Of a stretch of 64,000 nucleotides of DNA, positions 10,512-62,011 are shown piece after piece (within the stretch, counting starts at the first letter, position 1; each line of letters begins with the position of its first letter). Location of the stretch: the NCBI GenBank assembly GCA_016183365.1, contig JACPES010000003.1, positions 269,051-333,050 of the forward strand, in the 5' to 3' direction. The notes beneath the pieces were generated by a model. The model was not told the origin of the DNA. It made no database searches and saw only the letters and a program-made list of their open reading frames with translations. The position numbers were made by a program, and so were the translations under genes. This DNA comes from Candidatus Collierbacteria bacterium. GTDB lineage: Bacteria; Patescibacteriota; Microgenomatia; UBA1400; JACPES01.

Positions 10512-12254
10512 ATGAAATTTACTATCGACAAAGCCATTAAAACCGCAATTCAAAAAACGCTTAAAGATCTTGGGTTTCCGGAAACTCAAGTATCGCTCGA
10601 GCATCCGGCCGTCGAAGTCCACGGCGACTATAGCTCAAATATTGCGTTAACTCTTTTTCCGTCATTGCGATCCGCCAGTCGGCGGAGTGGCAATCTTAAA
10701 TTTTCTTCTCCCCGCCAACTGGCCGAATCAATCGTCGACGAACTTTCCTCAAATAAAGAATTGAAAAAAATCGTCTCCAAAATCGAAGTCGCCAGTCCGG
10801 GGTTTATAAATTTTATTCTCAACGAGAAATTATTGATCATTGGACTCGAAGAAATTCTGAAAGAAAAAAATGGATATGGAAGTTCCAATTCAGCAAAAGG
10901 TAAAACTATGGTCATAGATTATTCTGCTCCTAACATAGCCAAGCGTTTTACCATCGGTCATTTACGCTCGACAATTATCGGTCAGGCGATTTATAACATT
11001 TATAAATTTTTGGGCTGGAAGTGCATCGGCGATAATCATCTTGGCGATTGGGGGACGCAGTTCGGAAAAATGATTGTGGCAATCCGTAAATGGGCCGGAA
11101 AATCCGTGGATGAACTGACAATTGACGAAATGGAAAGTTTATATGTCCGATTTCATCAGGAAGCAGAAACTAATAAAGAATTGGATGAGGAGGCCCGGGT
11201 TGCATTTAAAGCTCTCGAAGACGGTAAGAAAGAAGAACGGGAACTTTGGAAAAAACTCGTTATCCGGTCGATGGAAGAATTTCAGAAAATTTACGATTTG
11301 TTAGGGGTCAAAATAGACGAGGTTTATGGAGAAAGTTATTACGAAAGTATGATGCCTCCGATTATCGATGAAGCCAAGAAAAAAGGTGTTGCCATTGAAA
11401 GTAAAGGCGCGTTAATTATTCCCTATCCGAAAGACGCTCTCCCGCCGAGTATGCTTCTTAAAAGCGATGGGGGAACAACTTATTTAACTCGGGATTTGGC
11501 GACAATCAAATTTAGGAAAGAAAAATGGAATCCTGATTTGATGATATACGAAGTCGGATCAGAACAAACTTTGCATTTCCGGCAAGTTTTCTTGGCAGTA
11601 GAACTTCTTGGTTGGGCAAAGCGCAACCAATTCTTTCATATACCGCATGGACTAATAAGGTTGAAAGAGGGGAAAATAAGTACTCGAAAAGGAAATGCCG
11701 TTAAGCTGGAGCAGGTATTGACGGAAGCGATAGACAGGGCTAAAAAATTCAATGATGATCCTGAAATTTCTAAAATGGTAGGTATTGGCGCGGTTAAATA
11801 TAACGATCTTAAACATTCTCCATCAACAGGATATGTTTTCGATTGGGCTGAAATGATAAATTTGGACGGTAACTCCGGTCCTTATCTCCAATACACCCAC
11901 GCCCGCTGCCGATCCGTATTAAACAAGGCTGGCGTTTTTCCTTCTTCCTTTTTCCCTCTTCCTTCTTCCTTAAACTTCGAGGAGCTTTCCATCCTCCGCT
12001 TTATCTACCGTTTCCCCGAAGTCGTCATGGAGGCGGCTAAACAATACGCCCCGAATTTAGTCTGTACTTTTCTTTACGAACTGGCCCAGCGGTTTAACAC
12101 TTTCTACAACAAGCACCGGATTTTAGGAGACAACGCTCAACGTTCAACGTTCAACGCTCAATTAGTTTTCCGTCTCCTCCTGACTTCCTCCGTCGCCCAA
12201 GTCCTCAAAAATGGCCTAGCTCTTCTCGGTATCCAGTCTCCGAACGCTATGTAA
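10512..12254 (+). CDS. argS: Arginine--tRNA ligase
   Basis: ArgRS N-terminal domain and the DYSAPNIAKRFTIGHLRSTIIG (HIGH-region) signature. Contains an in-frame palindromic insertion at 10661..10695 and a short CAACGTT tandem repeat near the 3' end. Confidence 0.88.
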   Translation: MKFTIDKAIKTAIQKTLKDLGFPETQVSLEHPAVEVHGDYSSNIALTLFPSLRSASRRSGNLKFSSPRQLAESIVDELSSNKELKKIVSKIEVASPGFINFILNEKLLIIGLEEILKEKNGYGSSNSAKGKTMVIDYSAPNIAKRFTIGHLRSTIIGQAIYNIYKFLGWKCIGDNHLGDWGTQFGKMIVAIRKWAGKSVDELTIDEMESLYVRFHQEAETNKELDEEARVAFKALEDGKKEERELWKKLVIRSMEEFQKIYDLLGVKIDEVYGESYYESMMPPIIDEAKKKGVAIESKGALIIPYPKDALPPSMLLKSDGGTTYLTRDLATIKFRKEKWNPDLMIYEVGSEQTLHFRQVFLAVELLGWAKRNQFFHIPHGLIRLKEGKISTRKGNAVKLEQVLTEAIDRAKKFNDDPEISKMVGIGAVKYNDLKHSPSTGYVFDWAEMINLDGNSGPYLQYTHARCRSVLNKAGVFPSSFFPLPSSLNFEELSILRFIYRFPEVVMEAAKQYAPNLVCTFLYELAQRFNTFYNKHRILGDNAQRSTFNAQLVFRLLLTSSVAQVLKNGLALLGIQSPNAM

Positions 12255-12375
12255 GATTTTCCCTACCCTTCTTATCCTTCTTATCCTTCTGATCCTTCTA
12301 ATTCTTCTCGTCTTACGCTCCTCTCCTAATATCTATATCTCTCTTAATATCCTTTAAAATCCTTATAATTATCTA

Positions 12376-12413: not shown

Positions 12414-13358
12414 ATGAAACTTCGTTTTGCCACAGTTTTTCTCTTTCAATTATTATTGATGTCTGTTTTTGTTCCCAAGATTCAAGCTTGGTGGTTGGTC
12501 GATCAATTCGGCCAGTTGATTAAAATGGATTCGAGCGGCCAGGTTTTAGGTGATGAAGATAAGGCTCCAAAAAAAGAAGATAAAAATGAGATCAAGAGTG
12601 GTGTCAAGGCAGAAACTACAAATACTAATTTTTCAACCAATCCTAAAGGAAATATTGAGCTAAAGTCAGGTGAAAATAAAAGAGAATTTGAAAATAAAAG
12701 AATAAAAATAAAAATGGAGCAGAAAAATGGCGAGCTGAAAATAAAAACAAAAAGTGAATTAACCGGCGAAGAAATTGAAATTGAGACTAGAATGGAAAAT
12801 AAAGAGAGGCCGGAAAAGACAGAGCCGCGGGAATCACGGGAATCGAAAGAATCCGAAGAATCAGTAGAGGTTCAGGAGACGCAGGAACAGCCGGAAAATG
12901 AAACAGAGATAATGAGGATTAGAGAGCGGGAAGAAAAGAACGAAGTTAAGATAAATACCAGAAATGGCGATTTCGTTATTGATAGGAATAATGTCGGAGC
13001 CACTACTAATTTCCCGTTATCAGTAGATTCTTCAACTAATATTTTGACTGTGACCACTCCGTTAGGAGAAAAACAGGTAACTGTTTTGCCGGATCAGGCA
13101 GTTCAAAATATGTTATCCAGGAATGTAATTGATCAGATTTCCGGTCAAGATAGCACCAGTTCATCCAGTCGGGTAAAAATGAGCCAAAAAATCGACGGGT
13201 CATTGGTTTATGAAGTCGAGGGTGAAAAACAAGAAAAACTATTTGGCTTGATGCCGTTGAAATTCAAAAAAACCGCTATAGTCTCCGTCGAAACAGGAGA
13301 ATTAATAGAAACCAAGGAATCTTTTGTTAACAAGTTCCTCGGGCTGATTTCGTTTTAA
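12414..13358 (+). CDS. Secreted hypothetical protein with a Lys/Glu-rich low-complexity region
   Basis: Signal peptide (MKLRFATVFLFQLLLMSVFVPKIQA), a long K/E-rich charged repeat region, and a C-terminal globular part. Confidence 0.55.
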   Translation: MKLRFATVFLFQLLLMSVFVPKIQAWWLVDQFGQLIKMDSSGQVLGDEDKAPKKEDKNEIKSGVKAETTNTNFSTNPKGNIELKSGENKREFENKRIKIKMEQKNGELKIKTKSELTGEEIEIETRMENKERPEKTEPRESRESKESEESVEVQETQEQPENETEIMRIREREEKNEVKINTRNGDFVIDRNNVGATTNFPLSVDSSTNILTVTTPLGEKQVTVLPDQAVQNMLSRNVIDQISGQDSTSSSSRVKMSQKIDGSLVYEVEGEKQEKLFGLMPLKFKKTAIVSVETGELIETKESFVNKFLGLISF

Positions 13359-13681
13359 CTTTTCAGTGAACGTTTTCGAACAAATTCGAACTCATTTCAA
13401 GTCAATGGGTTAGCTAGCCCCGCCACGGCAGGGCTCGCAAGGTGAACGCGGCGCCTTTACACTGAGCAGTTCGACTGAACTCACTGTAAACCTGCCGAAC
13501 GAACACCCGCCGCGCTGGAGTTTATCCTAAGCGGTGTCGAGAGGTTCAGGACAAGCTTTTTCGGAAGCGTAGCGATCCGGAAAGTAAACTATAAATATGA
13601 GCAGGTATTTCGAATTTTTTACCGAGTGGAATTTTTGGAATACAACAGTCAGCCCCGGAATAAATTCGCCGTTTTTATTTT

Positions 13682-13757
13682 TGGTGACGCTACCCGGATT
13701 CGAACCGGGGTTACCAGGATGAGAACCTGGTGTCCTGGGCCTCTAGACGATAGCGCC
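13682..13757 (-). tRNA. tRNA-Glu (anticodon CTC), CCA encoded
   Basis: Reverse complement GGCGCTATCGTCTAGAGGCCCAGGACACCAGGTTCTCATCCTGGTAACCCCGGTTCGAATCCGGGTAGCGTCACCA. The D-arm is identical to canonical tRNA-Glu. Anticodon loop TTCTCAT. Good cloverleaf. Confidence 0.9.
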
Positions 13758-14003
13758 AATTGAACCTAATTTTATCAGCTTTTCAATCAGAGATCGACTT
13801 TTATAACCTTTAATTTGATATTCTCTTTTCCCAGCCTCGGAATAAGTTTCGTATTTTTCAGTGTGAACTATTTCTATGGGAAGCCTAGATTTAGTAAATT
13901 TACACTTTTCCAATAGATGCTCCTGATATCTATTATTTAAATCAACAGTCGAGCCTGTGTAGTACCGATTATCTTTACATTTGAGAATGTAAACGCTGGG
14001 CAT
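13743..14003 (-). CDS. Small GIY-YIG nuclease-domain protein
   Basis: Trimmed to the ATG at 14001-14003 (MPSVYILKCKDNRYYTGSTVDLNNRYQEH... KREYQIKGY), a GIY-YIG-type core. The upstream ORF extension is low-complexity and overlaps a structured noncoding region. The 3' end overlaps tRNA-Glu by 15 nt. Confidence 0.65.
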   Translation of the reverse strand: MPSVYILKCKDNRYYTGSTVDLNNRYQEHLLEKCKFTKSRLPIEIVHTEKYETYSEAGKREYQIKGYKSRSLIEKLIKLGSIGAIV

Positions 14004-14235
14004 AATTGTTAGGATGTCCCGGTTCGATGATATCGAACCGAGGATGCTCGATCCGATCCGAAGAATCGAGATCGGCAAGAACCTGCTGTCTCCCGACACA
14101 TTTGTGTCGAGGATTCTCGACCTTTGGTCGGAACTAGCCATTAGACGATGGGGTCAACGCTTTAAACTATTCAGAATTATATCAACCCCTAGGTTATAAT
14201 TCTTATTGTCCTTATAATTTTTATCGTTTATAAAC

Positions 14236-14306
14236 TGCGGGATCGGCTAACGGTAGGCCACGACACTCTGAATGTCGGTATCTAGGTTCGATTCCTAGTC
14301 CCGCAA
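14236..14306 (+). tRNA. tRNA-Gln (anticodon CTG)
   Basis: TGCGGGATCGGCTAACGGTAGGCCACGACACTCTGAATGTCGGTATCTAGGTTCGATTCCTAGTCCCGCAA. The U1-A72 pair is typical of bacterial tRNA-Gln. Anticodon loop CTCTGAA. CCA not encoded. Confidence 0.88.
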
Positions 14307-14402
14307 CAAATTTTTTCTTAAGAAAAAATTTGTCCTGAGCGAATGGCGAGCGTAGCCGAGCCAGAGTCGAAGGACCAGTTTCTAAAAAAACTGGAAAATA
14401 TT

Positions 14403-14654
14403 ATGTATTTTGTCTACATGCTTCTTTGCCAAGACGGAAGCTATTACATCGGTTCTTCAAACAATGTTGAGAAGAGGCTGAAAGATCATTTAAATGGTAA
14501 AGGCGGCAAATATACAAAGAGCCATAAACCCCTCAAATTGGTTTATCAAGAGGCGTTGGGAAATAAATCAGAGGCATTAAAACGCGAATTTCAGCTTAAA
14601 CAATGGTCCCGTGTAAGAAAAGAAATATTAGCTCAATCTGTTACGTTTCCCTAA
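14403..14654 (+). CDS. Small GIY-YIG nuclease-domain protein
   Basis: ATG at 14403 (MYFVYMLLCQDGSYYIGSSNNVEKRLKDH ... REFQLKQW). The ORF extension upstream of 14403 is encoded by a palindromic repeat element (14332..14375) and is probably not translated. Confidence 0.65.
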   Translation: MYFVYMLLCQDGSYYIGSSNNVEKRLKDHLNGKGGKYTKSHKPLKLVYQEALGNKSEALKREFQLKQWSRVRKEILAQSVTFP

Positions 14655-16634: not shown

Positions 16635-17438
16635 CTAATTCTCCTTTCCTATCTTTACAAACCTCCTTTTTCCAAACTGATCCTTAATAATTTCGGCCCG
16701 GAAATTTTTCGGCAGTAATAAATCTTTGATCTTATGGGTTTCGTCAATTTCCAAAAGCAGAACTCCACTAAGTTTTAGCCTTAATTGCGATTGAGCAATT
16801 AATTTATTGATCAATTTTAATCCGTCAGGTCCGCCGTCAAGTGCAAGGAGCGGTTCAAAATCTTTGACCGATTTCGGCAATTTCGCAATTCTAGCAGAAG
16901 GAATATACGGCAGGTTGGCGATGATTAGATCAAACTTTAAATTAGAGGGAAATTGATCAAAAATATTACTTCTAATAAGATTAATTAAGTTTGGTTTCGG
17001 TACCAGGCGATCTAAGTTTCTTTGAGCGACTTCCAAAGATTTGTCCGAAATATCGGATAAAAACATTTGTATCCCCGTGCTAGATCCTTCGACTCGTCGT
17101 TGACCCCTCGCTCGGGATGACAAAGAGAGAATTTCCAGATATAAAGTAATTCCGATACACCCCGATCCGGTGCCGAGGTCGGCAACAGTTAATGGTTGAT
17201 GATTAATGGTTAATGGTTGATGAAAGATAGACTTTAAATGGGCAAGGCTTAAATTTATAAGTTGTTCGGTTTCTATCCGCGGAATTAAGACATTTTGATT
17301 AACCTCGAATTCCCGTCCGTAAAATTCTGCCCAACCCACCAGATATTCGACAGGCGCCTCACCGATCTTGATCCAATCTATTTCCTTTATACCGTGATGG
17401 TTGAGGAAGTTAATTTCTCGTGGAATTAGTTGTCTCAC
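16635..17438 (-). CDS. prmC: Release-factor glutamine N5-methyltransferase (HemK/PrmC)
   Basis: EYLVGWAEFYGREFEVNQNVLIPRIETE, DLGTGSG (SAM-binding) and NLPY (NPPY-type) motifs. Contains an in-frame 21-bp tandem duplication (HQPLTINHQPLT) and an in-frame GC-rich element insertion (17074..17121). Confidence 0.82.
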   Translation of the reverse strand: MRQLIPREINFLNHHGIKEIDWIKIGEAPVEYLVGWAEFYGREFEVNQNVLIPRIETEQLINLSLAHLKSIFHQPLTINHQPLTVADLGTGSGCIGITLYLEILSLSSRARGQRRVEGSSTGIQMFLSDISDKSLEVAQRNLDRLVPKPNLINLIRSNIFDQFPSNLKFDLIIANLPYIPSARIAKLPKSVKDFEPLLALDGGPDGLKLINKLIAQSQLRLKLSGVLLLEIDETHKIKDLLLPKNFRAEIIKDQFGKRRFVKIGKEN

Positions 17439-18250: not shown

Positions 18251-18269
18251 TAGTTTATAGGTTAATTTT

Positions 18270-18386
18270 GTCATTCCGAGCGATCCGCCAGCCAGCGGAG
18301 AGCGTGGGAATCTTTTGTCAGATTGCCACGCTGTCCCGAAGTAACCTCGTCTCGCAAAGCGAGATCCTGCTTTGCAGGACAATGAC
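18270..18386. repeat. GC-rich palindromic repeat element with GTCATTCCGAGCGA … GGACAATGAC termini (full-length member), intergenic between divergent uppP and ugd
   Basis: Several internal hairpins (TCTCGCAAAGCGAGA, CCTGCTTTGCAGG). Both termini carry outward-facing ATGs (…aATGac / gtCAT…). Confidence 0.7.
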
Positions 18387-22954: not shown

Positions 22955-23038
22955 GTCATTCCGGACTTGCCTGCCCGCCTATGGAGGGATCCGGAATCTA
23001 TATATCATATAAATAGATTACTGTTTTCGCAGGAATGA
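22955..23038. repeat. GC-rich palindromic element (GTCATTCCGGA… hairpin, tail GCAGGAATGATA), intergenic
   Basis: ATTCCGGA-[24 nt]-TCCGGAAT hairpin, same 5' terminus as the element at 35872. Confidence 0.6.
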
Positions 23039-31746: not shown

Positions 31747-33315
31747 ATGAACGATAAGCAAAAAGATAAAATTATGCTGCCTTTTATAATTTTTATCTCC
31801 GTTATTCTTTTTTTCTATCGGCTCGGGGAGACTGCTTTAACCAATTGGGACGAGGCTTGGTTTGGATCTGTGGCCCAAGACATGGTTTCTTCCGGTAATC
31901 TTTTGACAGGGAAATGGAATGGGCAAACATTTTTTTATGAACCCCCGCTTTTGGTTTGGTTGTTGTCTTTGTCGATTAAAGTTTTCGGCGAGAGCGAATT
32001 TTGGCTGCGGTCGGTCAGCGCTATAGCCGGACTTTTTACGGTTGTCGGTTGTTATTTTTTGACATTTCGAATCACAAAATCAAGACCGGCCGGAATTTTG
32101 TCAGGGCTGATAATTTTGTCTGATATCGAGTTTCTGTTCCGCAGCCGCCAAGTCAACGTCGAAATCCTTCTGACAGTTTTATTGTTGTGGTCGATGATTT
32201 TTATCTCTAAAGCTTATGAAAGCAATCGGCGACGGTGGATATTTTTTTCCGCTATTTGTTTAGGTTTGGCCTTTTTAACTAAACGAGCCAGTCCGGTTTT
32301 AGCTCTGCCGGCAGTCGGTTATCTTTTGTTAAAAACAACCTTCCGTGAACATCCTGTTCCTTTGTTTATATTCTTTATAACTTTTATAACCGTCACTTTA
32401 CCCTGGTATTTGCTTAGTTATTTTAAATGGGGGGACCAATTTATTAATGAGTTTTTTATCGGATATACTCTCAATAAAATTAAATCAGTCAACGTCAGTA
32501 TCGGAACTTCACCATTTTTTTACTTAAATTCTATTAAGCATGCCTTTAAATTCTGGTCTCTTTTAATTCCGCTTGCGGCCGTTTGGGCAGCGGTAACAGC
32601 TTTCCGTGACCGGAAAATTGCGGGAATAATGATTTTCATTTTGACTTTTCTATTTTTTCTGACCTTAGCGCCAATCAAATCTTCGTGGTTTTTCTTACCT
32701 CCTCATCCATTCTTGGCTATTTTGATAGGATTATTTATTTCAAGAATTGTGAAGTTTATCCTGCGAAGCCCCGTACCGTCTGGTACAGGGCGAAGCAGGA
32801 TCCCGCTCCGCGGGACGAAACTTCACAATCAAATAATTGTCATTTCAGACGCAGCAAAGCGAAGATCCGGAATTTATGCGGATATTCTATATAGCTTTCA
32901 ACTCGCCTCGCGACGAAGCGGGTTCAGGGTTGGGGTGATATTAGTTGTAATAATCTCTTTGGCGGGATGGCAACTTTATCGTTACCGTCACGATTACATA
33001 GTTCCCGACACCACCGGAAACCAAGCGATGATTTCCAGTTTGGCCGGGGCATTATCTAACAAAGGCGAACCGATTTATTTGGATGACGAATATCTGCCGG
33101 TGGCGGTTTTTTACAGCCATAAAAAAATTATTCCTTTAAGATTTAGCCGGACGGTTAATCGCGTCCCGAGCCAAACTTCTATTCCTGATAACAGTCTGAT
33201 TTTAACCAATCCGGAAACATTTCCCGCTTTAAAATCCGCTACCGGAATTTTGTTTGAGGAGCTTTTTTCCGTTAGGGATTTGATTTTGGTTAGAGCTAAA
33301 GGATTTAAGGTTTAA
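31747..33315 (+). CDS. GT-C superfamily glycosyltransferase (ArnT / PMT family, GT83/GT39-like)
   Basis: LTNWDEAWFGSVAQDMVSSGNLLTGKWNGQTFFYEPPLLVWL, a textbook ArnT/PMT N-terminal signature. Carries a roughly 190-bp in-frame GC-rich insertion (32749..32935). Confidence 0.7.
   Translation: MNDKQKDKIMLPFIIFISVILFFYRLGETALTNWDEAWFGSVAQDMVSSGNLLTGKWNGQTFFYEPPLLVWLLSLSIKVFGESEFWLRSVSAIAGLFTVVGCYFLTFRITKSRPAGILSGLIILSDIEFLFRSRQVNVEILLTVLLLWSMIFISKAYESNRRRWIFFSAICLGLAFLTKRASPVLALPAVGYLLLKTTFREHPVPLFIFFITFITVTLPWYLLSYFKWGDQFINEFFIGYTLNKIKSVNVSIGTSPFFYLNSIKHAFKFWSLLIPLAAVWAAVTAFRDRKIAGIMIFILTFLFFLTLAPIKSSWFFLPPHPFLAILIGLFISRIVKFILRSPVPSGTGRSRIPLRGTKLHNQIIVISDAAKRRSGIYADILYSFQLASRRSGFRVGVILVVIISLAGWQLYRYRHDYIVPDTTGNQAMISSLAGALSNKGEPIYLDDEYLPVAVFYSHKKIIPLRFSRTVNRVPSQTSIPDNSLILTNPETFPALKSATGILFEELFSVRDLILVRAKGFKV
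32749..32935. repeat. Composite GC-rich repeat insertion in frame in the ArnT-like gene
   Basis: Three parts: a GTGAAGTTT…AAACTTCAC hairpin element (32749..32826), a GTCATTTCAGACGC…CCGGAAT element (32839..32873) and a GC-rich tail. Encodes …KFILRSPVPSGTGRSRIPLRGTKLHNQIIVISDAAKRRSG…LASRRSGFRVG…. Confidence 0.6.
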
Positions 33316-34476: not shown

Positions 34477-36766
34477 GAAATCTTTCAACCATTTAACCAT
34501 TCTAACCATTTTAACTTTTGTAGTCACCACAATATTTTACTTCAAGCCCATCTGGAAAAATAAGTTGATTCCTTTTCCAGGCCGCCTGCTGGTATCTTAT
34601 TTTAGCCCCTGGAAAGAAGAATCATGGCCCGAGTTTCCGACCGGAGTTCCGCGTAAAGGTCTATTGGGTTTTGATACCGCCAGAATGATGGGTTCCTGGC
34701 GCAGTTTTATTACAAACGAACTTAAACAAGGCAGATTGCCGACCTGGAACCCGCATCAGTTCGCCGGCGCCCCGCTTTTAGCCAATTTCCAATCGGCCAC
34801 TTTCTTTCCTCCCAATCTAATTTATCTCCTGCTTCCTTTTTCAATCGCCTGGACAATTTTAGTCATTTTTCAACCCTTGTTAGCAAGTTTTGGGATGTAT
34901 TTATTGCTTAAATCACAGTTTAAAGACAAAAACCTAATAACTAACAACCAAATACTAATAACTATTCTTCCTTCTCTCGCCTACGGTTTTTCCGCCTGGA
35001 TGTCTGTTTGGATAGAATGGAATATTCACGGTTTTGTTTACGCCCTGCTTCCATTTGTGCTCCTTTTTATCCATAAGAGAAAAGCCATTTTAATCATTTT
35101 AACCATTTCAGCCATTATTTTTGCCGGTCATCCGCAAATGGCCTTTATTGCCCTGACGGCTGCCGCGCTCTTTGCCGCGGTCAATCACCGTCTTAAAAAA
35201 TTTCTGTTGTCAGCCGCGGTCGCCCTTCTAATTACTTCTGTCCAGTGGATTCCCGCTGTTCGTTACTACCAAGAGGCCAGCCGGGAACAATCCTCAAGCG
35301 AATTTACTTACGAAAAAACTCTCTTACCGTGGGGCCAAATCTCGCAATTAATAGTTCCTAATTATCTGGGAAATTCCGCCACCGGAAATTTCCGCGGCCA
35401 AGCAAATTTTGTAGAAACCACCGCTTATTCAGGAATAGCAATTTTGGGATTTGCGATTATGGGATTGTTGGCAAGAAACAAGAAACAAGAAGTAAAATTT
35501 GCCGTTTTTCTCCTTCTGACAATTTTCCTTTTTGTTCTCCCCAACCCATTTTCATTTCTTGTAGGCAAACTCAACATCCCGATTCTTTCCACCAGCGTCG
35601 CCAGTCGCTGGCTGATGCTTTTGCCTCTGGCGGTAACTTTGTTAGCTGCCGCCGGTATCGACCGATTTATTGAACTAACTACATCAAACCCTACTAAAAA
35701 GGCCAGGCCTTTTCCGGAAAGGCCTGGCCTTTTCTCTCCCGCCGTTTTTGTTTTTATCCTAATAGCTGGTCTGTGGATATACGCTTTGCTATCTCCTTCT
35801 GAACTCCGTTCGGTTTCCATCCGCAATCTGATGATACCCAGCGCCATCGCCGGCTTATTCCTATTAACATTGTCATTCCGGACTGCCGACCCGCCTGCAA
35901 GCGCCTGGAGCGCTAGCGACTGGCGGGCAGGTCGGCAGTCTGTAATGAAGATTTTATTGTTTTCTTTGGTTGTTTTGTCTATCGGTGAGCTTATTTTATT
36001 CGGTTGGAAAACAATGCCGTACACTGAAAAAAATTTCGTTTATCCGGAGACTCCGGTGTTAGAAAAATTACAGGAGTTTTCCAAAGATGGTAGTAGATTT
36101 GCATCTACTGATGGCAGCGTAATCGAGTCAAATTTTGCCACTTATTATAAGTTATATGATTTATCAGGCTACGATGCTTTGTACCCGCGCAGAATCGGAG
36201 AATTGATTTGGGTAGCTCAAAATAAAGGGCAACCTGTAGCCGATTTTTCCCGGTCTACCGTGGTCACTCCCACCTCTCCTTCACTGACCAAAGATAATCT
36301 TTGGAACTTGGCCGGCGTCCGCTGGATCATCAATAAAGATGACCTGCTGTCAGAACATCCCGGCCAAAGATCTAATGATTTATCTCCCGACTTCAAACTT
36401 ATCTGGGAAGAAGGCAAGTGGCAAATCTACGAAAACCTTAACGCATTTCCTCGGGCTTTCTTTATTAAGAGTGGGGATTGGATTGGTGAGGGTGATGACG
36501 TGATTAGTAGCTCCTTAAATCTCTCAACCTCTTTAGTCTCCCTTATCACCCCGGCTAGAATTGTCTTCTATCAGCCGACAAAGGTGGCGATAGAGGTTAG
36601 CGCCCCAGCTGATGGTTATCTGGTATTAACCGATACTTTTTATCCCGGCTGGACGGCTACCGTTGATGGTCCTTTGGCGGAGATTGTTCCGGCGTTTCAT
36701 GCTTTTAGAGCCGTTCCGGTCTCTCAAGGAAATCATATTGTTAAGTTTAGTTACGGTTCTTTATAA
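34475..36766 (+). CDS. YfhO-like GT-C polytopic membrane protein (paralog of 56130 and 59927)
   Basis: Shared N-terminal pattern: …YFSPWKEE…GRLPTWNPHQFAGAPLLANFQSATFFPP…. Carries in-frame palindromes at 35697..35734 and 35872..35948 and a (CAAGAAA)3 repeat. Confidence 0.5.
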   Translation: MKSFNHLTILTILTFVVTTIFYFKPIWKNKLIPFPGRLLVSYFSPWKEESWPEFPTGVPRKGLLGFDTARMMGSWRSFITNELKQGRLPTWNPHQFAGAPLLANFQSATFFPPNLIYLLLPFSIAWTILVIFQPLLASFGMYLLLKSQFKDKNLITNNQILITILPSLAYGFSAWMSVWIEWNIHGFVYALLPFVLLFIHKRKAILIILTISAIIFAGHPQMAFIALTAAALFAAVNHRLKKFLLSAAVALLITSVQWIPAVRYYQEASREQSSSEFTYEKTLLPWGQISQLIVPNYLGNSATGNFRGQANFVETTAYSGIAILGFAIMGLLARNKKQEVKFAVFLLLTIFLFVLPNPFSFLVGKLNIPILSTSVASRWLMLLPLAVTLLAAAGIDRFIELTTSNPTKKARPFPERPGLFSPAVFVFILIAGLWIYALLSPSELRSVSIRNLMIPSAIAGLFLLTLSFRTADPPASAWSASDWRAGRQSVMKILLFSLVVLSIGELILFGWKTMPYTEKNFVYPETPVLEKLQEFSKDGSRFASTDGSVIESNFATYYKLYDLSGYDALYPRRIGELIWVAQNKGQPVADFSRSTVVTPTSPSLTKDNLWNLAGVRWIINKDDLLSEHPGQRSNDLSPDFKLIWEEGKWQIYENLNAFPRAFFIKSGDWIGEGDDVISSSLNLSTSLVSLITPARIVFYQPTKVAIEVSAPADGYLVLTDTFYPGWTATVDGPLAEIVPAFHAFRAVPVSQGNHIVKFSYGSL
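35697..35734. repeat. Near-perfect palindrome AAAAGGCCAGGCCTTTTCCGGAAAGGCCTGGCCTTTT, in frame in a CDS
   Basis: Member of the AAGGCCWGGCC family (see 52251, 52534, 57168). Encodes KKARPFPERPGLFS. Confidence 0.75.
35872..35948. repeat. GC-rich palindromic element GTCATTCCGGACTGCCGACCCGCC…GGCGGGCAGGTCGGCAGTC…TGTAATGA, in frame in a CDS
   Basis: Long imperfect stem. The 5' terminus is identical to the 22955 element. Encodes LSFRTADPPASAWSASDWRAGRQSVMK. Confidence 0.65.
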
Positions 36767-37448: not shown

Positions 37449-37454
37449 AGGAAA

Positions 37455-40357: not shown

Positions 40358-41831
40358 GCAAAAAACAGTTAAAGGGTTGGTGGCCCTGATAGCCAGAACC
40401 GGTCTGCTGCAGGTTATAGCGGTTGTAGCGACATTTATTTTGACGGTATTTTTAGATCCAGCTCAATTTGGAGTTTTTGCGATCGTGGCCGCAGCAGTTG
40501 ACATTTTGGTTTATTTTTCAGATATCGGTTTAGCCGGAGCGTTGATCCAGAAGCAAGATATAAACGAAAAAGATCTGGCTACAACTTTTACGATTCAGCA
40601 GATATTAAGTTTGACTTTGTTGGGTCTTGGATTTTTAGCCGGCAGCTTGGTGGCTAATATTTACTCTCTTTCCTTAGCCGGAATTTGGTTGTTCAGAGCG
40701 TTATTGGTTTCAGTTTTTTTGTCAGGCTTGAAAACGATTCCCAGTGTTTTATTGGAAAGAAAACTTGATTTTATTAAAGTCGTTACCGTCCAGATTGCGG
40801 AAACATTAATTTTTTACGGACTGGCGGTATTTTTGGCGTGGAAAGGGTTTGGAGTATCCAGTTTTTCTTGGGCGGTTTTATTCAGGAGTGTCATTGGGTT
40901 GATAATGATTTATATTTTAGCGCCATGGAGACCGCGAATCGGGATTGACAGGATTTCATTCAAAAAACTGATATCGTTTGGAATGCCGTTTCAATTAAAT
41001 AGTCTTTTAGGTTTGGTAAAAGATCGGATGTTGGTGGCATATTACGGAGCGATTTTGTCTCCGGTTCATGTCGGGTATCTACAGTGGGCGGAAAGATGGT
41101 CTCTTTTCCCGTTGAGAATGGTGGTGGATAATGTCTCAAAGGTGACTTTTCCGGCTTATTCCAGACTGCAGGCAGAACGCGATCATTTAGTCAAAGCTAT
41201 TGAAAAATCAATTTTTTTTACCGGTCTTTTCATTTTCCCGATCTTAATAGGACTGATAGTTTTGGCTCCGACTGCCCTGGAAGTTATTCCCAAATATAAT
41301 AAATGGCAGCCGGCTCTTTTGGCTTTAGGTTTATTTTCCATAAATGCTATGTGGTCTTCAATTTCGACTACAATTACTAACGCGTTTGCGGCTATGGGGA
41401 AAATTAATATTAATTTGAAATTAATGTTAATGTGGACCGTGCTGACATGGATTTTGACTCCATTATTGATGTCTAAATACGGTTATAATGGCGTGGCCGC
41501 CGCTTCGGCTTTGGTAGCTTCATCTTCAATAATTCCGATGATAATCCTTAAAAGGATATTACCGATAAGGCTATTCTCGAATATCTGGCCGCAATTAATC
41601 AACGCGTTAATAATGGGGTTAATAATCCGTTATGTTAATTTAAAATTACCATTTACTATTTACTCTTTGCTATTTACCGTTCTCCTCGGTGCTATACTTT
41701 ATGGTGCGTTATTAATGGTTTTAATGCCTAAAAAACTGATAGCAGAAATAAAATCAGTCTGGTTGTTGTCATCCCGAGCGAAGCCAGGTACCGGCCGGAA
41801 CCTGGCGAAGTCGAGGGATCTAACGGAGTGA
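40335..41831 (+). CDS. Wzx-type oligosaccharide flippase (MOP superfamily polysaccharide biosynthesis protein)
   Basis: About 14 TM helices with a Wzx-like N-terminus (…LVALIARTGLLQVIAVVATFILTVFLDPAQFGVFAIVAAAVDILVYFSDIGLAGALIQ). The last 22 residues are encoded by the palindromic element at 41768..41832. Confidence 0.65.
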   Translation: MDKISQVKQKTVKGLVALIARTGLLQVIAVVATFILTVFLDPAQFGVFAIVAAAVDILVYFSDIGLAGALIQKQDINEKDLATTFTIQQILSLTLLGLGFLAGSLVANIYSLSLAGIWLFRALLVSVFLSGLKTIPSVLLERKLDFIKVVTVQIAETLIFYGLAVFLAWKGFGVSSFSWAVLFRSVIGLIMIYILAPWRPRIGIDRISFKKLISFGMPFQLNSLLGLVKDRMLVAYYGAILSPVHVGYLQWAERWSLFPLRMVVDNVSKVTFPAYSRLQAERDHLVKAIEKSIFFTGLFIFPILIGLIVLAPTALEVIPKYNKWQPALLALGLFSINAMWSSISTTITNAFAAMGKININLKLMLMWTVLTWILTPLLMSKYGYNGVAAASALVASSSIIPMIILKRILPIRLFSNIWPQLINALIMGLIIRYVNLKLPFTIYSLLFTVLLGAILYGALLMVLMPKKLIAEIKSVWLLSSRAKPGTGRNLAKSRDLTE

Positions 41832-41886
41832 CAAAAATAATTATTAATATCGCTTTGCTAGATTTCTCGCTGTAGCTCGAAATGAC
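41768..41886. repeat. GC-rich palindromic element GTCATCCCGAGCGAAGCCAGGTACCGGCCGGAACCTGGCGAAGTCGAGGGATCTAACGGAGTGAC plus a degenerate second copy ending …CTCGAAATGAC
   Basis: Forms the 3' end and stop codon of the flippase gene and the spacer before the next ATG. Close relatives at 17074..17121 (reverse) and 14332..14375. Confidence 0.65.
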
Positions 41887-44130: not shown

Positions 44131-44136
44131 TTTGCT

Positions 44137-44873: not shown

Positions 44874-44898
44874 TTCCATTATTTTCGCTTGACTACTA

Positions 44899-45896: not shown

Positions 45897-45978
45897 TTCT
45901 TTTCCATCCGCGGCCGCGGACTCAAAAGAGTAAAAGTTAATCTTAACTTCCAGCGGCCGCGGGGAGTTATTGACACTA
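45897..45978 (+). repeat. 82-bp direct repeat, copy 2 (promoter/operator-like module upstream of larE)
   Basis: See copy 1. TTGACA at 45970-45975 lies about 64 nt upstream of the larE ATG. Confidence 0.8.
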
Positions 45979-48700: not shown

Positions 48701-48776
48701 AATAATAAATGGTTATAATGGTTAATAAATGGTTTAAATGATTGAGATCTTAATTTTTTTAGCCATTTTAACCATT

Positions 48777-54292: not shown

Positions 54293-55083
54293 AATTATCT
54301 GCGATAGTTATCACAAACAATTCTGCTGCCAAAATAAAAGGTTGTCTGAAATCGTTAAAATTTGCCGATGAAATTATAGTTGTGGATTCAGGCTCTACCG
54401 ATAAGACTAAAGAATTGGTCGAAAAAACCGGGGCCAGGGTTTTTGAAGTTGAAAATGTCGGCTATTCTCATAGCCGTAACGTTGGGGCCCAAAAGGCCAA
54501 AGGCGAATGGTTACTTTATATTGACGCGGATGAAAGGGTTACTCCTGAATTGGAAAAAGCAATATCCGTCATTGCGAGCCCCGTTGCGGGGCTCGCAATG
54601 ACTTTTCAGAGCTACAAAATTTACCGCAAGAATATTATCCTAGGAAAATGGCTCAAACACGGCGGCTGGTGGCCTGATCCGGTCCACCGGCTGATCAAAA
54701 AATCAGCGCTGAAAGAATGGACGGGAAAACTCCACGAATACCCCATTATTGATGGGAATGTTGGTCTGATTACTGAGCCTCTCGTTCATTTTTCAAAAGG
54801 TTCGATATCGGAAATGGTAAAAAATTCCCGCGACTTTGTGCCAATAGAAGCGCAATTGAAATCAGATGCTGGTCATCCGCCGGTAAAAATCTATCATTTT
54901 GTTTTGGCTATGTGGAGAGAGTTTTGGACCAGGGGTATTTTGAAAGCCGGTTGGTTAGATGGCATAGTCGGCATAATCGAAATCTTTTATCAAATGTTCC
55001 ACCAATTTATGGTCTATTCAATATTATGGCAAATGCAACAGTCTTCTTTCCGTCATCCTGAGCGAAACAAAAAATCTCGTTAA
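54289..55083 (+). CDS. Family-2 glycosyltransferase carrying an in-frame 35-bp perfect palindrome
   Basis: LSAIVITNNSAAKI…IIVVDSGSTDKT…YIDADE. Palindrome at 54568..54602. The C-terminus ends in a truncated element (55052..55068). Confidence 0.75.
   Translation: MKLSAIVITNNSAAKIKGCLKSLKFADEIIVVDSGSTDKTKELVEKTGARVFEVENVGYSHSRNVGAQKAKGEWLLYIDADERVTPELEKAISVIASPVAGLAMTFQSYKIYRKNIILGKWLKHGGWWPDPVHRLIKKSALKEWTGKLHEYPIIDGNVGLITEPLVHFSKGSISEMVKNSRDFVPIEAQLKSDAGHPPVKIYHFVLAMWREFWTRGILKAGWLDGIVGIIEIFYQMFHQFMVYSILWQMQQSSFRHPERNKKSR
54568..54602. repeat. Perfect 35-bp palindrome GTCATTGCGAGCCCC-GTTGC-GGGGCTCGCAATGAC inside a GT2 CDS
   Basis: Carries the GTCATTGC…GCAATGAC termini of the main element family. 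Encodes IASPVAGLAMT in frame. Confidence 0.88.
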
Positions 55084-59930: not shown

Positions 59931-62011
59931 AAATATTAAATTTGGTTCGAAATTTAATAGCTTATGTCATTCCAGCGATCCTTCGACAAGCTCAGGATGG
60001 TGAGCACCGTCGAACCAAAGCTGGAATCTATTTAAATAGTAGTTCCGCCAAAGGCGGAATGACAATGGTGATTTTGATTGTACTATCTTTGTCTTTTTTC
60101 TGGCCTGTATGGTTTAAGGGAAAACTGCCGATTCCGGCCGATGCTTTAGTCGGATTGTATCACCCGTTCCGAGATTATTACGCGGCTGATTTTCCGAATG
60201 GGGTCCCGTTTAAAAATTATATTTTGACTGATCCGGTATTGCAGCAGTACCCGTGGAAATGGTTAGCTATAAATCAGTTAGGGAGTATCCTTAAAGGAGT
60301 CTCCTTTAAGGATACTCCCTTGTTGGAAAATCCTTATTCTTTTGGCGGTTACGGAGCCAGTTCAATAGAAAATATTCAGGCGGGGACATTTTATCCGCTG
60401 AACATCCTTTTTTTTCTTATCAATAATTTTTCCGCGGCATGGACGGTTTTTATCATCCTTCAGTCAATCTTGGCTTCATTATTTATGTACTGGTGGCTTA
60501 AAGAAAATTCCTTAAAAAATTCGGCAGCGATTTTTGGCGGGTTAGTTTGGGCGTTTTCTTCTTTCAATTTGGTCTGGCTGGAGTGGGGGAATATTGGACA
60601 TGCCGGACTGTGGTTGCCATTGGCACTATTGTGTGTTGACAAAATGCAAAAAACAAAAAACAAAAAACAAAAAACCTGGAAATGGCATGCGATTCTGCAA
60701 TTTGTACTATCAAGCAGCCTTTTTGCCGGACATTTGCAAGTGACGCTTTATCTACTGATGGCTGTGGCGCTGTATTGGTTTATCCGGCTGGGTATTTCGA
60801 AACGATCTATTTCATTGTTTCTTGTTTTTTGTTTCTTGTTTCTTGCCCTTACGTCCATTCAATGGATTCCATCACTGAAATTTACTCTCTCATCAAATCG
60901 TGAAGTCGAGCAACAGGATGCTCTTACCCGCGAAGGGTTTTTCATTCGTCCCCATCAGTTAGTTCAAATGATAAGTCCGGATTTTTTTGGCAACCCGTCG
61001 ACTTTGAATTATCGCGGCGCTTGGAATTATGCCGAACAGGTAATTTATATCGGAATCATTCCTTTACTATTTGTTCTTTTAGGCGTTCTCACCAAAAACT
61101 CTCAAAAAAATGATGTAGATTCGATATGCTATAGCTTATCGAATCTACATCTACATAGGTTTTGTTGGTCGCTGATAATTATCGGTTTGTTGTTCGCGAC
61201 TGACAATCCGATTTCGCGTTTGCCTTATCAATTAAAGCTGCCATTAATTTCTGATCTGCAACCGACAAGATTATCTTATTTGATTACTTTCGGACTATCT
61301 TCCCTTTCGGCTTTTGGTCTCAACGAGTTTATTAAAAATCCCCGGAAATTATTCTCAAAAGTTATAACCATCGTTGTCGTCTTTACCGTTTTGCTGTTTG
61401 CCCTATTAATAATTAGCAGTAAACTTTCACCGGAAGATAAATTAATTTCCCAACGCAACTTAATATGGCCAGTAACGCTTTTGATTTTATTTTATATTTT
61501 AAGTGGATTGTTCTACTTGTTTGAGAACAAAAAACAAAAAACAAAAAACAAAAAACTTCAGCTCTTTGCTCTTTGCTCTTTGCTTTTTGTCATTTCCGAT
61601 CTCTTCCGTTTCGGCTGGAAATTTACTCCGTTCTCTCCAAAAGAATATTTGTATCCCATAACTCCTGCCATAAAATTTTTGCAAAACAATATTCGGGAAA
61701 ACGACAGATATATGACTTTAGACCGCCGCATTTTACCTCCGAATGCAAATATAATTTATGAATTGAAATCAATCGAAGGTTACGATCCAATTTATTCGAA
61801 ACAATACGCGTTGTTAATAGGAGAGATGGAATCCGGGGAAGTAGCCGATAAGCCGCAGAGTTTTGGTCGGATTATCAGGCCTATAAACTATAAATCCCCG
61901 ATTACTGCTCTTTTGGGAGTCCGTTACGCGCTTAGTCTGTCTGATCTTGAAGAGGAGAGGTGGGTTAAGGTTTTTCAAGAAGGGAAAACTAGAATCTATG
62001 AAAGACGGTAG
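59927..62011 (+). CDS. YfhO-like GT-C polytopic membrane protein (paralog of 34475/56130); start uncertain
   Basis: The ORF call uses GTG at 59927. Alternative ATGs at 60059 and 60065 lie at the end of the 59966..60063 repeat element. Carries (AAAAAAC)4 ×2, (TTTGCTC)3 and (TTTCTTG)4 arrays and a perfect 39-bp palindrome. Confidence 0.5.
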   Translation: MKILNLVRNLIAYVIPAILRQAQDGEHRRTKAGIYLNSSSAKGGMTMVILIVLSLSFFWPVWFKGKLPIPADALVGLYHPFRDYYAADFPNGVPFKNYILTDPVLQQYPWKWLAINQLGSILKGVSFKDTPLLENPYSFGGYGASSIENIQAGTFYPLNILFFLINNFSAAWTVFIILQSILASLFMYWWLKENSLKNSAAIFGGLVWAFSSFNLVWLEWGNIGHAGLWLPLALLCVDKMQKTKNKKQKTWKWHAILQFVLSSSLFAGHLQVTLYLLMAVALYWFIRLGISKRSISLFLVFCFLFLALTSIQWIPSLKFTLSSNREVEQQDALTREGFFIRPHQLVQMISPDFFGNPSTLNYRGAWNYAEQVIYIGIIPLLFVLLGVLTKNSQKNDVDSICYSLSNLHLHRFCWSLIIIGLLFATDNPISRLPYQLKLPLISDLQPTRLSYLITFGLSSLSAFGLNEFIKNPRKLFSKVITIVVVFTVLLFALLIISSKLSPEDKLISQRNLIWPVTLLILFYILSGLFYLFENKKQKTKNKKLQLFALCSLLFVISDLFRFGWKFTPFSPKEYLYPITPAIKFLQNNIRENDRYMTLDRRILPPNANIIYELKSIEGYDPIYSKQYALLIGEMESGEVADKPQSFGRIIRPINYKSPITALLGVRYALSLSDLEEERWVKVFQEGKTRIYERR
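59966..60063. repeat. Full-length GC-rich palindromic element GTCATTCCAGCGA … GGCGGAATGAC at the 5' end of a GT-C gene
   Basis: Long-range stem ATTCCAGC/GCTGGAAT plus a TTCCGCCAAAGGCGGAA hairpin. Translated in frame if the GTG start is used (…VIPAILRQAQDGEHRRTKAGIYLNSSSAKGGMTM…). Confidence 0.7.
60281..60319. repeat. Perfect 39-bp palindrome GGGAGTATCCTTAAAGGAG-T-CTCCTTTAAGGATACTCCC inside a CDS
   Basis: 19-bp arms checked by hand. Encodes GSILKGVSFKDTPL. The core AAAGGAGTCTCCTTT recurs at 52832..52846. Confidence 0.88.

Follow-up and report, generated by a model that had tools for sequence, protein, structure and literature searches.

The closest described relatives of the repeats reported here are the NTS/dRS3 repeats and the Ssn-related motifs (SRM) of Neisseria. 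The GIY-YIG nuclease SsnA binds and cuts the latter in single-stranded form; the 3 nt preceding the palindrome govern cleavage, and the C behind it governs binding (Chenal et al. 2025, PMC11893778). The loop of the palindrome can be removed or extended, and the motifs were likened to REP/REPIN elements (PMC11893778). Small GIY-YIG single-strand DNA nucleases recognise GC-rich hairpins of the same type in Neisseria and Wolbachia. The original prediction for the DNA analyzed here regarded the behaviour of its repeats as not known to be described for the lineage. The class itself is known, since its frame is that of the Neisseria NTS/dRS3 repeat and of the Ssn-related motifs, published in 2025 (PMC11893778). 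The claim for the lineage was upheld, as we found no published description of such repeats in CPR/Patescibacteria.

The window, i.e. the complete analyzed stretch of 64,000 nt, belongs to a Candidatus Collierbacteria genome. The host is a groundwater bacterium with a tiny genome, which is dotted with short GC-rich DNA hairpins.

The predicted family of GC-rich palindromic DNA proved to be real. All listed copies (11/11) were found at their positions, and a 12th copy, absent from that listing, was detected at 34115-34150. The 14-mer GTCATTCCGAGCGA (≤3 mismatches) occurred 14 times in the window compared to 4.5 ± 1.8 times in dinucleotide shuffles, none of which (0/100) reached 14 matches. An architecture of GTCAT, a 5-bp stem, an interior, the complementary stem and C was present ten times, against 2.3 ± 1.6 (maximum 8) in 200 first-order Markov random sequences matched in dinucleotide frequency; seven of the ten matches were GC-rich true units. 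The G+C content of the units was 49-70%, that of the window 41%. An external HMM trained only on 179 units from unrelated metagenome contigs recovered 18265-18315, 41764-41821 and 17104-17126 (E = 6e-7 to 1e-3). The repeats are not an assembly artefact, because the sequence was identical across 3.5-21.7 kb, except for one 8-nt gap, in eight independent assemblies of this population from Logan.

A single long element with truncated copies had been proposed. Instead, the basic unit is one hairpin of 25-65 nt, GTC-ATYSC...GSRAT-C, the loop of which often holds nested extra hairpins. Two types of units were found, here named type A (GTCATTSC...GSAATC) and type B (GTCATCCYGAGCGA...GTCGARGGATC). Seven GC-rich units of the window fitted the frame GTC + ATYSC...GSRAT + C, and the copies 14332-14375, 32839-32873 and 55052-55068 are degenerate or incomplete. 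The units are found singly, in inverted dimers whose GTCAT heads point outward, or in nested mosaics with further hairpins in the loops. Relative to canonical short forms known from elsewhere, the long interiors represent insertions into the loop. The degenerate search sequence published for SRM gave 0 matches in the window owing to the length and nesting of these interiors.

The supposed full-length elements and two further copies each consist of two units in inverted orientation. The dimer 18270..18386 is located between the divergent genes bacA and ugd and comprises unit(+) 18270-18312, an 8-nt spacer and unit(-) 18321-18386. In a 125-nt gap between two GT2 genes, the dimer 22955..23038 contains unit(+) 22955-22998 (GTCATTCCGGACTTG-[insert]-ATCCGGAATC), an AT-rich spacer and a degenerate unit(-) 23016-23038; the uninterrupted form of its first unit, GTCATTCCGGACTTGATCCGGAATC, was found in a Roizmanbacteria locus (L031). 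The third dimer (41768..41886) carries a type B unit(+) 41768-41820, from which the final ~21 codons and the stop of a Wzx-like flippase are derived, followed by a spacer and a short unit(-) 41861-41886. The fourth, 59966..60063, is located upstream of a YfhO-like gene. Here, a reverse type B core ATCCTGAGCTTGTCGAAGGATC is nested within unit(+) 59966-60028, and a spacer separates it from a short unit(-) 60042-60063. The dimers 18270-18386 and 59966-60063 are effectively intergenic, the long ORFs crossing both being upstream extensions of real genes.

With their outward-facing inverted termini and a size of 84-119 bp the dimers resemble classical MITEs. These would be non-autonomous IS derivatives whose terminal inverted repeats, GTCAT...ATGAC, are recognised by a transposase of the DDE or another type acting in trans. 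The variable presence of copies between related genomes would fit as well. Nevertheless, we regard this origin as quite unlikely. No target-site duplication was visible in the flanks of any dimer, and the scanned or annotated ORFs of at least 100 aa in the window included no transposase, integrase or RAYT. Furthermore, single hairpins predominate over pairs of terminal inverted repeats, and across phyla the same termini adjoin small GIY-YIG genes and not transposases.

Copies were found in six or more coding regions, and those in frame add about 12-26 residues. The prediction that genes carry copies in frame was confirmed by comparison for the PrmC-like and the YfhO-like gene; for argS and a GT2 gene no clean empty site was present among the relatives compared. 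The PrmC-like gene, whose designation as prmC rests on weak methyltransferase Pfam matches only, contains the type B unit 17083..17121 on the minus strand (GTCATCCCGAGCGA...GTCGAAGGATC in the sense strand, peptide SSRARGQRRVEGS; external HMM E = 1.4e-3). This segment of 39 nt or 13 codons is missing in the syntenic ortholog of a related genome (L001). The YfhO-like gene carries a long palindrome of 77 nt (35872..35948, plus strand; GTCATTCC head, GTAATGA tail) with a nested CCCGCCTGC/GGCGGGCAGG hairpin (single-stranded DNA fold -28.4 kcal/mol, z = -5.9). It adds about 26 residues in frame, and the inserted segment is missing in the paralog 56130-58190 and in the homolog of a further locus (L094).

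In argS, the type A unit 10661..10695 (plus strand; GTCATTGCGA-[TCCGCC AGTC GGCGGA]-GTGGCAATC, peptide SLRSASRRSGNL) lies in frame within the N-terminal domain, in a loop of variable length (fold -10.2 kcal/mol, z = -3.45). The GT2 gene contains a perfect 35-nt palindrome in frame (54568..54602; GTCATTGCGAGCCCCG-TTG-CGGGGCTCGCAATGAC, peptide VIASPVAGLAMT; fold -21.6 kcal/mol, z = -8.7) in a variable loop; compared with paralogs, the net gain is 3 residues. The 3' end of this gene also holds a truncated type B head GTCATCCTGAGCGAAAC (55052..55068, plus strand), which is a head alone with 2 mismatches to the 14-mer. Among relatives, the loops occupied in these two genes (argS and GT2) are hypervariable, and in close relatives they contain other repeats. 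A PMT_2 glycosyltransferase gene contains a degenerate type A-like unit in frame (32839..32873, plus strand; peptide VISDAAKRRSGI); the unit is a weak member since its head GTCATTTC and tail CCGGAAT are incompletely complementary. The 12th copy is a type B unit on the minus strand (GTCATCCCAAGCGG...GTCGAGGGATC in the sense strand), in frame in a GT87 gene with the peptide PSSQAERSVVEGS. In the fold test, significant single-stranded DNA folding was gone in this copy (34115-34150) and in 17083-17121. For most in-gene copies the GTCAT strand is the coding strand, a bias that derives from few and partly non-independent cases. Copies inside genes persist where the frame is kept and the loop is tolerant.

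These in-frame copies bear out the predicted resemblance to the behaviour of Rickettsia palindromic elements (RPE). Membership in the RPE families was rejected, since the insert peptides matched no model at E ≤ 10 in NCBIfam, a library which we take to contain RPE domain models. That RPE family members were acquired by, or are shared with, the host lineage is therefore highly improbable in our view. Residence in frame in unrelated genes, including that of an aminoacyl-tRNA synthetase, would agree with it, but no conserved encoded peptide is common to the copies, which use three reading frames, and the host is a Collierbacterium. The units also measure 25-77 nt compared to about 100-150 bp given for RPE (PMC10969869). 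Some RPE may contain the same hairpin unit, since Rickettsia is among the genomes holding more than 300 Ssn-related motifs (PMC11893778).

Units were gained, lost or exchanged since the split from the ~80%-identical relative. In L001 the PrmC-like ortholog has its own, different unit elsewhere in the gene. The bacA-ugd dimer is present at the orthologous site as well, where its left unit is 95% conserved and its right unit is replaced. The left unit of 59966-60063 shares 62/64 positions (97%) with a non-orthologous site of L001 (13533-13595); the two differences together form one compensatory stem pair.

Parts of this picture could also be expected from non-mobile sequences, i.e. host-selected structural signals such as terminators, mRNA stabilisers or protein-binding sites together with chance or ancestral palindromic coding segments. 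Three dimers (18270, 22955 and 59966) fit exactly into short gaps between genes, the bacA-ugd copy is conserved in a relative, and the compensatory change shows that selection, or copying, acted on the structure. We consider this explanation unlikely, however. A terminator would do harm in the coding regions occupied, the segments in the PrmC-like and YfhO-like genes are missing from ortholog and paralogs, and a near-identical unit is found at unrelated loci in two genomes with no more than about 80% identity.

Two single-domain GIY-YIG genes are present in the window. GIY#1 (14391..14654, plus strand, ATG at 14403) encodes a UPF0213/YazA-like nuclease of 83-87 aa (Pfam PF01541, E = 2.4e-20), which matched PDB 1zg2 (UPF0213; E = 1.6e-17), the GKG(A/G)KYT motif being common to both. 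Among its homologues are Staphylococcus genes and one from Bacillus subtilis that is annotated yazA. Identity to SsnA of N. gonorrhoeae was 31%, and mini-profiles scored 92 bits for UPF0213 versus 47 bits for SsnA. GIY#2 (13743..14003, minus strand, 86 aa) lies between a tRNA 5' fragment and tRNA-Glu. Both proteins are nearer to UPF0213 than to SsnA and neither falls into the SsnA clade.

Located 16-28 nt upstream of GIY#1 is a degenerate hairpin motif (14332..14375, plus strand; GTCC-TGAGCGAA-[22-nt loop insert]-GTCGAA-GGAC). It lacks the AT of GTCAT and its single-stranded DNA fold is not significant. This is the upstream motif of the GIY#1 family, a short form of which, GTCCTGAGCGAAGTCGAAGGAC, precedes the homologue in L084. 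Within 200 bp of homologues of GIY#1, hairpins of the class CYGAGC...CGARGG showed a 13-fold enrichment (18 matches in 31.8 kb versus 33 in 774 kb; 80 genomes of several phyla). GTCAT-type units were not enriched beside homologues of GIY#1 or GIY#2, and no units flanked the GIY#2 homologues in L093, L094 or L096.

SsnA-type genes were found on metagenome contigs. Among 120 contigs chosen only by GTCATTCCGAGCGA...GGGAATC, four carried such a gene directly flanked by both subtypes of the window (GTCATTGCGAG... and GTCATTCCGAGCGA...), and one of the proteins matched N. gonorrhoeae SsnA with E = 1e-21. The gonococcal ssnA gene itself, encoding Y6, Y17 and E64, has nine strict SRMs within 3.2 kb. 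A Roizmanbacteria contig holds the exact NTS core GTCATTCCCGCGAAGGCGGGAATC.

These neighbours also bear on REP/REPIN-like elements, which a RAYT (IS200/IS605-type Y1 transposase) spreads by acting on hairpin DNA. REPs are typically extragenic. In addition, no Y1 transposase was found among the scanned or annotated ORFs of the window, and in other contigs the gene beside the units encodes a GIY-YIG nuclease and not a RAYT. Such an origin thus appears very unlikely to us, even though the units are short imperfect palindromes, the inverted doublets resemble REPINs and a hairpin-based single-strand mechanism is plausible, an analogy also drawn for the Neisseria motifs (PMC11893778).

We would rather assign the elements of the window to the hairpin repeats of the NTS/Ssn-related-motif class, with a candidate GIY-YIG partner, and consider this assignment fairly probable. 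The unit is a short imperfect palindrome with its stem after GTC and before C, which are the cut and binding positions of SsnA-type enzymes in Neisseria. A small GIY-YIG nuclease may bind and nick the extruded or single-stranded hairpin, which could be the basis of spread, of recombination or of a restriction of incoming single-stranded DNA. GIY#1 is the candidate partner of type B; should the organism possess an SsnA-type enzyme for the type A units, its gene would lie outside the window.

The kind of repeat is already known, and its occurrence in the Collierbacteria lineage or inside genes is not known to have been reported. To our knowledge, no repeat association has been reported for the UPF0213/YazA/YhbQ family (PDB 1zg2, 1ywl); GIY#1 is similar to it in sequence and differs by the hairpin enrichment beside the genes seen here. 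RPE are likewise in-frame palindromic repeats in unrelated or essential genes of a reduced genome and encode short peptides in tolerant regions (PMC10969869). In contrast, the units of the window are much shorter, lack a family-specific encoded peptide, have a concrete candidate class of protein partner and occur in another phylum. With REP/REPIN elements they share short hairpins, often in inverted doublets, the single-strand hairpin as presumed substrate and the association with a small nuclease-type gene, present in one copy and with repeats on its own flanks. Here, however, the partner is a GIY-YIG nuclease instead of an HUH Y1 enzyme, copies are present inside genes and the window contains no RAYT.

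Compared with the Neisseria/SsnA system, many in-frame copies are located within coding sequences, a topic absent from PMC11893778, and the host belongs to the CPR, a group not mentioned there. SsnA is cd10448-like, whereas the GIY-YIG proteins of the window are UPF0213-like. On the other hand, the small GIY-YIG gene has a motif just upstream here as well, and the units share the frame (C/T)GTC-ATTCC...GGAAT-C with NTS/dRS3, the NIME mosaics and SRM. The predicted single-stranded DNA topology is the same as that of NTS, with 5 unpaired nt including GTC, the stem and C. In both systems the repeats are multi-copy, mosaic or clustered, and located near surface-polysaccharide or surface-protein genes.

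The unit of repetition in the window was found to be a single GTCAT-headed, GC-rich hairpin of 25-65 nt with the formula 5'-(T/C)GTC-ATYSC...GSRAT-C-3'. In predicted ssDNA folds the units show approximately 5 unpaired bases including GTC, the stem and a 3' C. All eleven copies listed in the original prediction were recovered at their positions, and a further copy was found at 34115-34150 (minus strand), in frame in a GT87 gene. The proposal of one element with full-length and truncated copies was not borne out, since the copies regarded as full-length are inverted dimers. These dimers (18270-18386, 22955-23038, 41768-41886 and 59966-60063) consist of two inverted units which are separated by a short AT-rich spacer and turn their GTCAT heads outward.

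Units of type A (GTCATTSC...GSAATC) were present at 10661, 18270, 18386, 22955, 35872, 54568, 59966 and 60063, and units of type B (GTCATCCYGAGCGA...GTCGARGGATC) at 17121, 34150, 41768 and 55052. The copies at 14332, 17121, 34150, 32839 and 55052 were degenerate or partial. The long interiors are hairpins nested in the loops of short canonical forms which are known elsewhere. The window form GTCATTCCGAGCGA-[TCCGCCAGCCAGCGGAGA]-GCGTGGGAATC corresponds to the short form GTCATTCCGAGCGAAGCGTGGGAATC, which accounted for 16 of 125 pattern matches in metagenome contigs. Likewise, the 22955 unit is GTCATTCCGGACTTGATCCGGAATC, a form present in Roizmanbacteria, with a 19-nt insertion, and a reversed type B core is nested within the 59966 unit. 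A GC-rich stretch at 13400-13600, between the gene 12414-13358 and tRNA-Glu, contains hairpin fragments such as GCTAGCCCCGCCACGGCAGGGCTCGC and, on the minus strand, GTCCTGAACCTCTCGACACCGCTTAGGATA, possibly the decayed remains of a unit mosaic.

The ArgRS encoded in the window shows 100% identity to an annotated protein of Candidatus Collierbacteria (CPR, Microgenomates). The window has a G+C content of 41% and carries the housekeeping genes argS, a PrmC-like methyltransferase gene, bacA and ugd. These are accompanied by an extended series of glycosyltransferase, PMT_2, YfhO-like, GT87 and flippase genes, in effect a region for cell-envelope glycosylation. Within the window the 14-mer GTCATTCCGAGCGA occurred 14 times with up to 3 mismatches, compared to 4.5 +/- 1.8 times in shuffled sequences. 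A structural scan required GTCAT, a 5-bp stem starting from AT, its complement after an interior of 4-75 nt, and a subsequent C; it gave 10 matches (7 of them GC-rich) versus 2.3 +/- 1.6 in random sequences. As the loops were too heterogeneous for a covariance model of the window copies, we used an external HMM trained solely on 179 units of unrelated metagenome contigs, which retrieved three window copies with E-values from 6e-7 to 1e-3. The Rfam search of the window yielded two tRNAs alone at the gathering threshold, the E-value threshold search of 13300-14450 gave no match, and PADLOC returned marginal GIY-YIG matches and nothing more. Two matches to the unit pattern were found in viral contigs.

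The region was identical in eight independent assemblies of the same population and the repeats are therefore no assembly artefact. These assemblies, all with identical ArgRS, represent the same strain and yielded no insertion polymorphism. Between L004 and window positions 512-22246 (21.7 kb), which come from two assemblies of the same population, the sole difference was one 8-nt gap that may reflect length variation of a tandem repeat.

The syntenic contig L001, with approximately 80% nucleotide identity to the window, served as reference for turnover and insertion. The dimer between bacA and ugd is orthologous in both; its left unit is 95% conserved and its right unit has been replaced. The left unit of 59966 was identical in 62 of 64 positions to an L001 unit at an unrelated locus with unrelated flanks, and both mismatches fall on a single stem pair that has changed in a compensatory way (A-T versus C-G). 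Such near-identity in genomes that are about 80% identical in their genes points to recent copying or transfer with preservation of the hairpin.

The GTCAT...ATGAC ends of the dimers resemble the terminal inverted repeats of a MITE, but most copies are single hairpins. No direct repeats indicative of a target-site duplication were present in the dimer flanks, and no transposase, integrase or IS200-type enzyme was detected among the scanned or annotated window ORFs of at least 100 aa, which cover most of them. With these hallmarks missing in the window, a MITE is considered unlikely. For REP/REPIN-RAYT systems, the RAYT hallmark is lacking within the window, where no Pfam match to a Y1 (IS200/IS605-like) RAYT gene was obtained.

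The original prediction of in-frame insertion into genes held for the PrmC-like and YfhO-like genes by comparison with ortholog, paralog and homolog, but was weaker for argS and the GT2 gene, where the units occupy variable loops. For the PrmC-like gene, alignment with the L001 ortholog shows a clean gap of 39 nt (13 codons) in place of the window unit. The L001 gene has a type A unit of its own at a second site, at which a 7-nt tandem repeat is found in the window, and a different palindrome at a third. Two palindromes of the YfhO-like gene, one of 77 nt and one of the AAGGCC type, were both missing from the window paralog and from a homolog on contig L094. A comparable case is found in another CPR genome: positions 1-800 of the Roizmanbacteria contig MGAO01000009 (L031) contain the canonical Neisseria-type core GTCATTCCCGCGAAGGCGGGAATC as inverted dimers, of which one forms an in-frame part of a 5'-3' exonuclease gene (peptide LPSFPRKRESHKIPDQVGDD) and another lies just beyond the end of this gene.

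The argS and GT2 units lie in loops whose length varies between 40 homologs or, for GT2, between paralogs, and close relatives carry unrelated low-complexity repeats in the same loops. Accordingly, no clean empty site was found for the argS unit, as its relatives have other repeats in that loop. In the AlphaFold model of ArgRS (pLDDT 91) the N-terminal accessory domain accommodates the insert between two of its helices without a drop in confidence, which lends weak support to a position in a surface loop. Peptides encoded by the inserts include SLRSASRRSGNL, SSRARGQRRVEGS and VIASPVAGLAMT. In-frame units in proteins, including an essential tRNA synthetase, represent a concrete source of many lineage-specific insertions in CPR proteins. 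The dimers 18270 and 59966 are intergenic; ORFs that cross them represent upstream extensions. This matters for annotation: gene callers extend ORFs across units, as seen upstream of ugd, bacA and GIY#1, a small GIY-YIG gene.

Every single (non-dimer) intragenic unit of the window has its GTCAT strand on the coding strand, including two in minus-strand genes. In low-GC contigs 14 sense and 4 antisense units were counted, and 3 of the latter were partner halves of dimers. Stop-codon content on its own predicts a ratio of approximately 3:2. Given the small and partly non-independent sample, the sense-strand excess is to be taken as a lead only.

Further repeats of other kinds occur in the region. 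A second, unrelated palindromic family with the structure AAGGCCWGGCC-loop-GGCCWGGCCTT is present at 35699-35731, 52241-52273 and 52534-52566 and in L001 at about 17770-17815. One member lies within the YfhO-like gene (peptide KARPFPERPGL, missing from paralog and homolog) and two in the membrane ORF 51903-53456, all in frame and with three different frames in use; the family is also present in the PrmC-like ortholog of L001. Intergenic repeats centred on CCGCGGCCGCGG were found at 10451-10501, 44120-44170, 44884-44980 and 45897-45978. An 82-nt pair of them with 98% identity flanks the gene of a PaaX-like regulator (45035-45865), so the repeats may be operator sites of this regulator. Tandem repeats of 6-9 nt such as (AACAAAA)n, (TTTGCTC)n and (AACCATTTT)n are located at gene starts, ends and loops (12262-12308, 34486-34528, 37444-37529, 48743-48803, 57592-57632, 60629-60683 and 61517-61602). 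Some are translated, e.g. as KQKTKNKK, and in relatives such tandem repeats take the place of hairpin units in the same variable loops of argS and of the PrmC-like gene. A RhuM-family gene (55088-56032, Pfam E = 1e-94) starts 20 nt past the truncated unit 55052-55068 in the middle of the glycosyltransferase cluster and may be an inserted mobile or defence-related gene.

Chenal et al. 2025 (PMC11893778) defined the Neisseria repeat NTS, CGTCATTCCCGCGMAVGCGGGAATCYRG, of which dRS3 is a subset, together with degenerate Ssn-related motifs (SRMs), and the unit structure closely resembles both. NTS is the target of SsnA, a 94-aa single-domain GIY-YIG protein which binds the hairpin solely as ssDNA and cuts a few nt upstream. 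The three bases 5' of the palindrome govern cutting, the C after the palindrome governs binding, removal or extension of the loop is tolerated, and the motif flanks ssnA genes across phyla (PMC11893778). The window units have exactly the same frame, with GTC before the palindrome and C after it giving the orientation. GTCAT with a 5-bp stem, followed by the complementary stem and C, fits seven GC-rich units, and the topology of their ssDNA folds is that of Neisseria NTS. The published SRM pattern HGTCWYN(0-2)YYVSBRHN(0-5)WNVSBRGN(0-2)RNCYNB had 0 matches in the window because the unit interiors exceed the allowed length; the same script gave 9 matches in 3.2 kb around ssnA of N. gonorrhoeae.

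Scanning metagenome contigs for GTCATTCCGAGCGA-N(4-34)-GGGAATC returned 120 contigs (781 kb). Four of these (L156, L167, L199 and L200) carried SsnA-type genes, each directly flanked by GTCATTCCGAGCGA... and GTCATTGCGAG... units, and one of the encoded proteins matched SsnA of N. gonorrhoeae with E = 1e-21 over 97% of its length. Since the unit types of the window flank SsnA-type genes, they are assigned to the SsnA-associated class, of which they form a variant with long loops.

The window itself contains two small single-domain GIY-YIG genes, GIY#1 (14391/14403-14654, plus strand) and GIY#2 (13743-14003, minus strand), which flank a tRNA-Glu/tRNA-Gln locus. GIY#1 is UPF0213/YazA-like (match to PDB 1zg2 with E = 1.6e-17) and shares 31% identity with SsnA of N. 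gonorrhoeae. Its mini-profile scores were 92 bits for the UPF0213 type versus 47 bits for the SsnA type, and those of GIY#2 were 64.5 versus 31.7 bits, which by this measure places both outside the SsnA clade (cd10448). GIY#1 was rejected as partner of the GTCAT units, as the 826 kb selected for its homologues (80 genomes) contained only about 8 true units, none adjacent to a homologue; no ORF in this set had the SsnA type as best score. GIY#2 was rejected as well, belonging to a narrow family (11 relatives) with no units in the flanks of the homologues. An SsnA-type partner of the type A units, if present, is located outside the window.

A different but related hairpin, GYCC-TGAGC...TCGAAG-GGRC (e.g. 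GAAGTGCCCTGAGCTTGTCGAAGGGC), usually precedes GIY#1 homologues by 3-50 nt and shares their strand. There were 18 occurrences in 31.8 kb near the gene and 33 in 774 kb of other sequence. This 13-fold enrichment spans CPR, Bacteroidales, Ignavibacteria and Omnitrophota. The degenerate copy at 14332-14375 (short form GTCCTGAGCGAAGTCGAAGGAC), the only motif adjoining GIY#1 in the window, is a GIY#1-family hairpin of this kind whose loop carries an insertion of 22 nt, and it shares its interior with type B units. This interior and the enrichment make GIY#1 a candidate nuclease for type B-like hairpins. Furthermore, the enrichment suggests that the UPF0213 type is a second, very widespread and uncharacterised GIY-YIG family with sequence-specific ssDNA targets. 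Such putative targets matter for the ssDNA tools proposed from Ssn enzymes.

With regard to gene neighbourhood, UPF0213-type genes (80 loci, L013-L092, about 200 bp on each side) often follow a tRNA gene closely. Hairpins of the GAAGTGCCCTGAGCTTGTCGAAGGGC type precede them, in some cases joined by a reversed copy ACTTCGACTCGCTTCGCTCGCTCAGTGCAAGCAC beside the tRNA, and the same arrangement occurs in Bacteroidales (L045, L052). The GIY#2 locus (13682-14160, minus strand) comprises a tRNA 5' fragment with a hairpin-rich leader of about 130 nt, the GIY#2 gene and an intact tRNA-Glu, with the stop codon of GIY#2 overlapping the 5' end of this tRNA. A tRNA-like sequence immediately follows the GIY#2 homologues on L093 (7625-8470), L094 (3300-3800)/L095 and L096 (7240-7975), and on L093 a tRNA 5' fragment and leader are likewise present upstream. 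In L001 a different GIY-YIG subfamily occupies this position. From this arrangement GIY#2 looks like a GIY-YIG homing cassette targeting tRNA genes; Rfam detected no intron family at the locus.

NTS/dRS3/SRM repeats with Ssn nucleases are already known as a kind of repeat, so the novelty originally claimed stands for the in-gene copies in CPR but not for the repeat as such. What is new is the host (CPR), a nested form with long loops which the published pattern misses, the frequency of in-frame copies within genes, and the association of a UPF0213-type GIY-YIG family with a motif. Neither CPR nor intragenic copies appear in the Ssn paper (PMC11893778), and we found no other paper reporting either. 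The range of nuclease-linked hairpin repeats, known from Neisseria, Wolbachia and further Pseudomonadati, thereby comes to include the Candidate Phyla Radiation. The genomes of this group are smaller than 1 Mb and usually regarded as streamlined.

The likeness to Rickettsia palindromic elements (RPEs) suggested in the original prediction concerns behaviour and not family membership. In-frame insertion into unrelated genes is common to RPEs and to the units (PrmC-like and YfhO-like genes, Roizmanbacteria exonuclease). None of nine insert peptides had any match at E <= 10 in NCBIfam, the library with the RPE domain models. RPEs are about 150 bp in size (PMC10969869), compared to 25-77 nt for the units, which by peptide, size and lineage are not members of the RPE families. 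A tentative and rather speculative extension would be that small GIY-YIG nucleases outside the SsnA clade (UPF0213/YazA/YhbQ) each have a cognate hairpin, and that such pairs drive in-frame coding palindromes in reduced genomes (CPR and possibly Rickettsia RPEs). If so, the bias towards GTCAT on the coding strand would reflect insertion or retention coupled to the strand exposed as ssDNA. The units described here link coding palindromes of the Rickettsia style to an enzyme class of known biochemical activity and thus to a possible mechanism.
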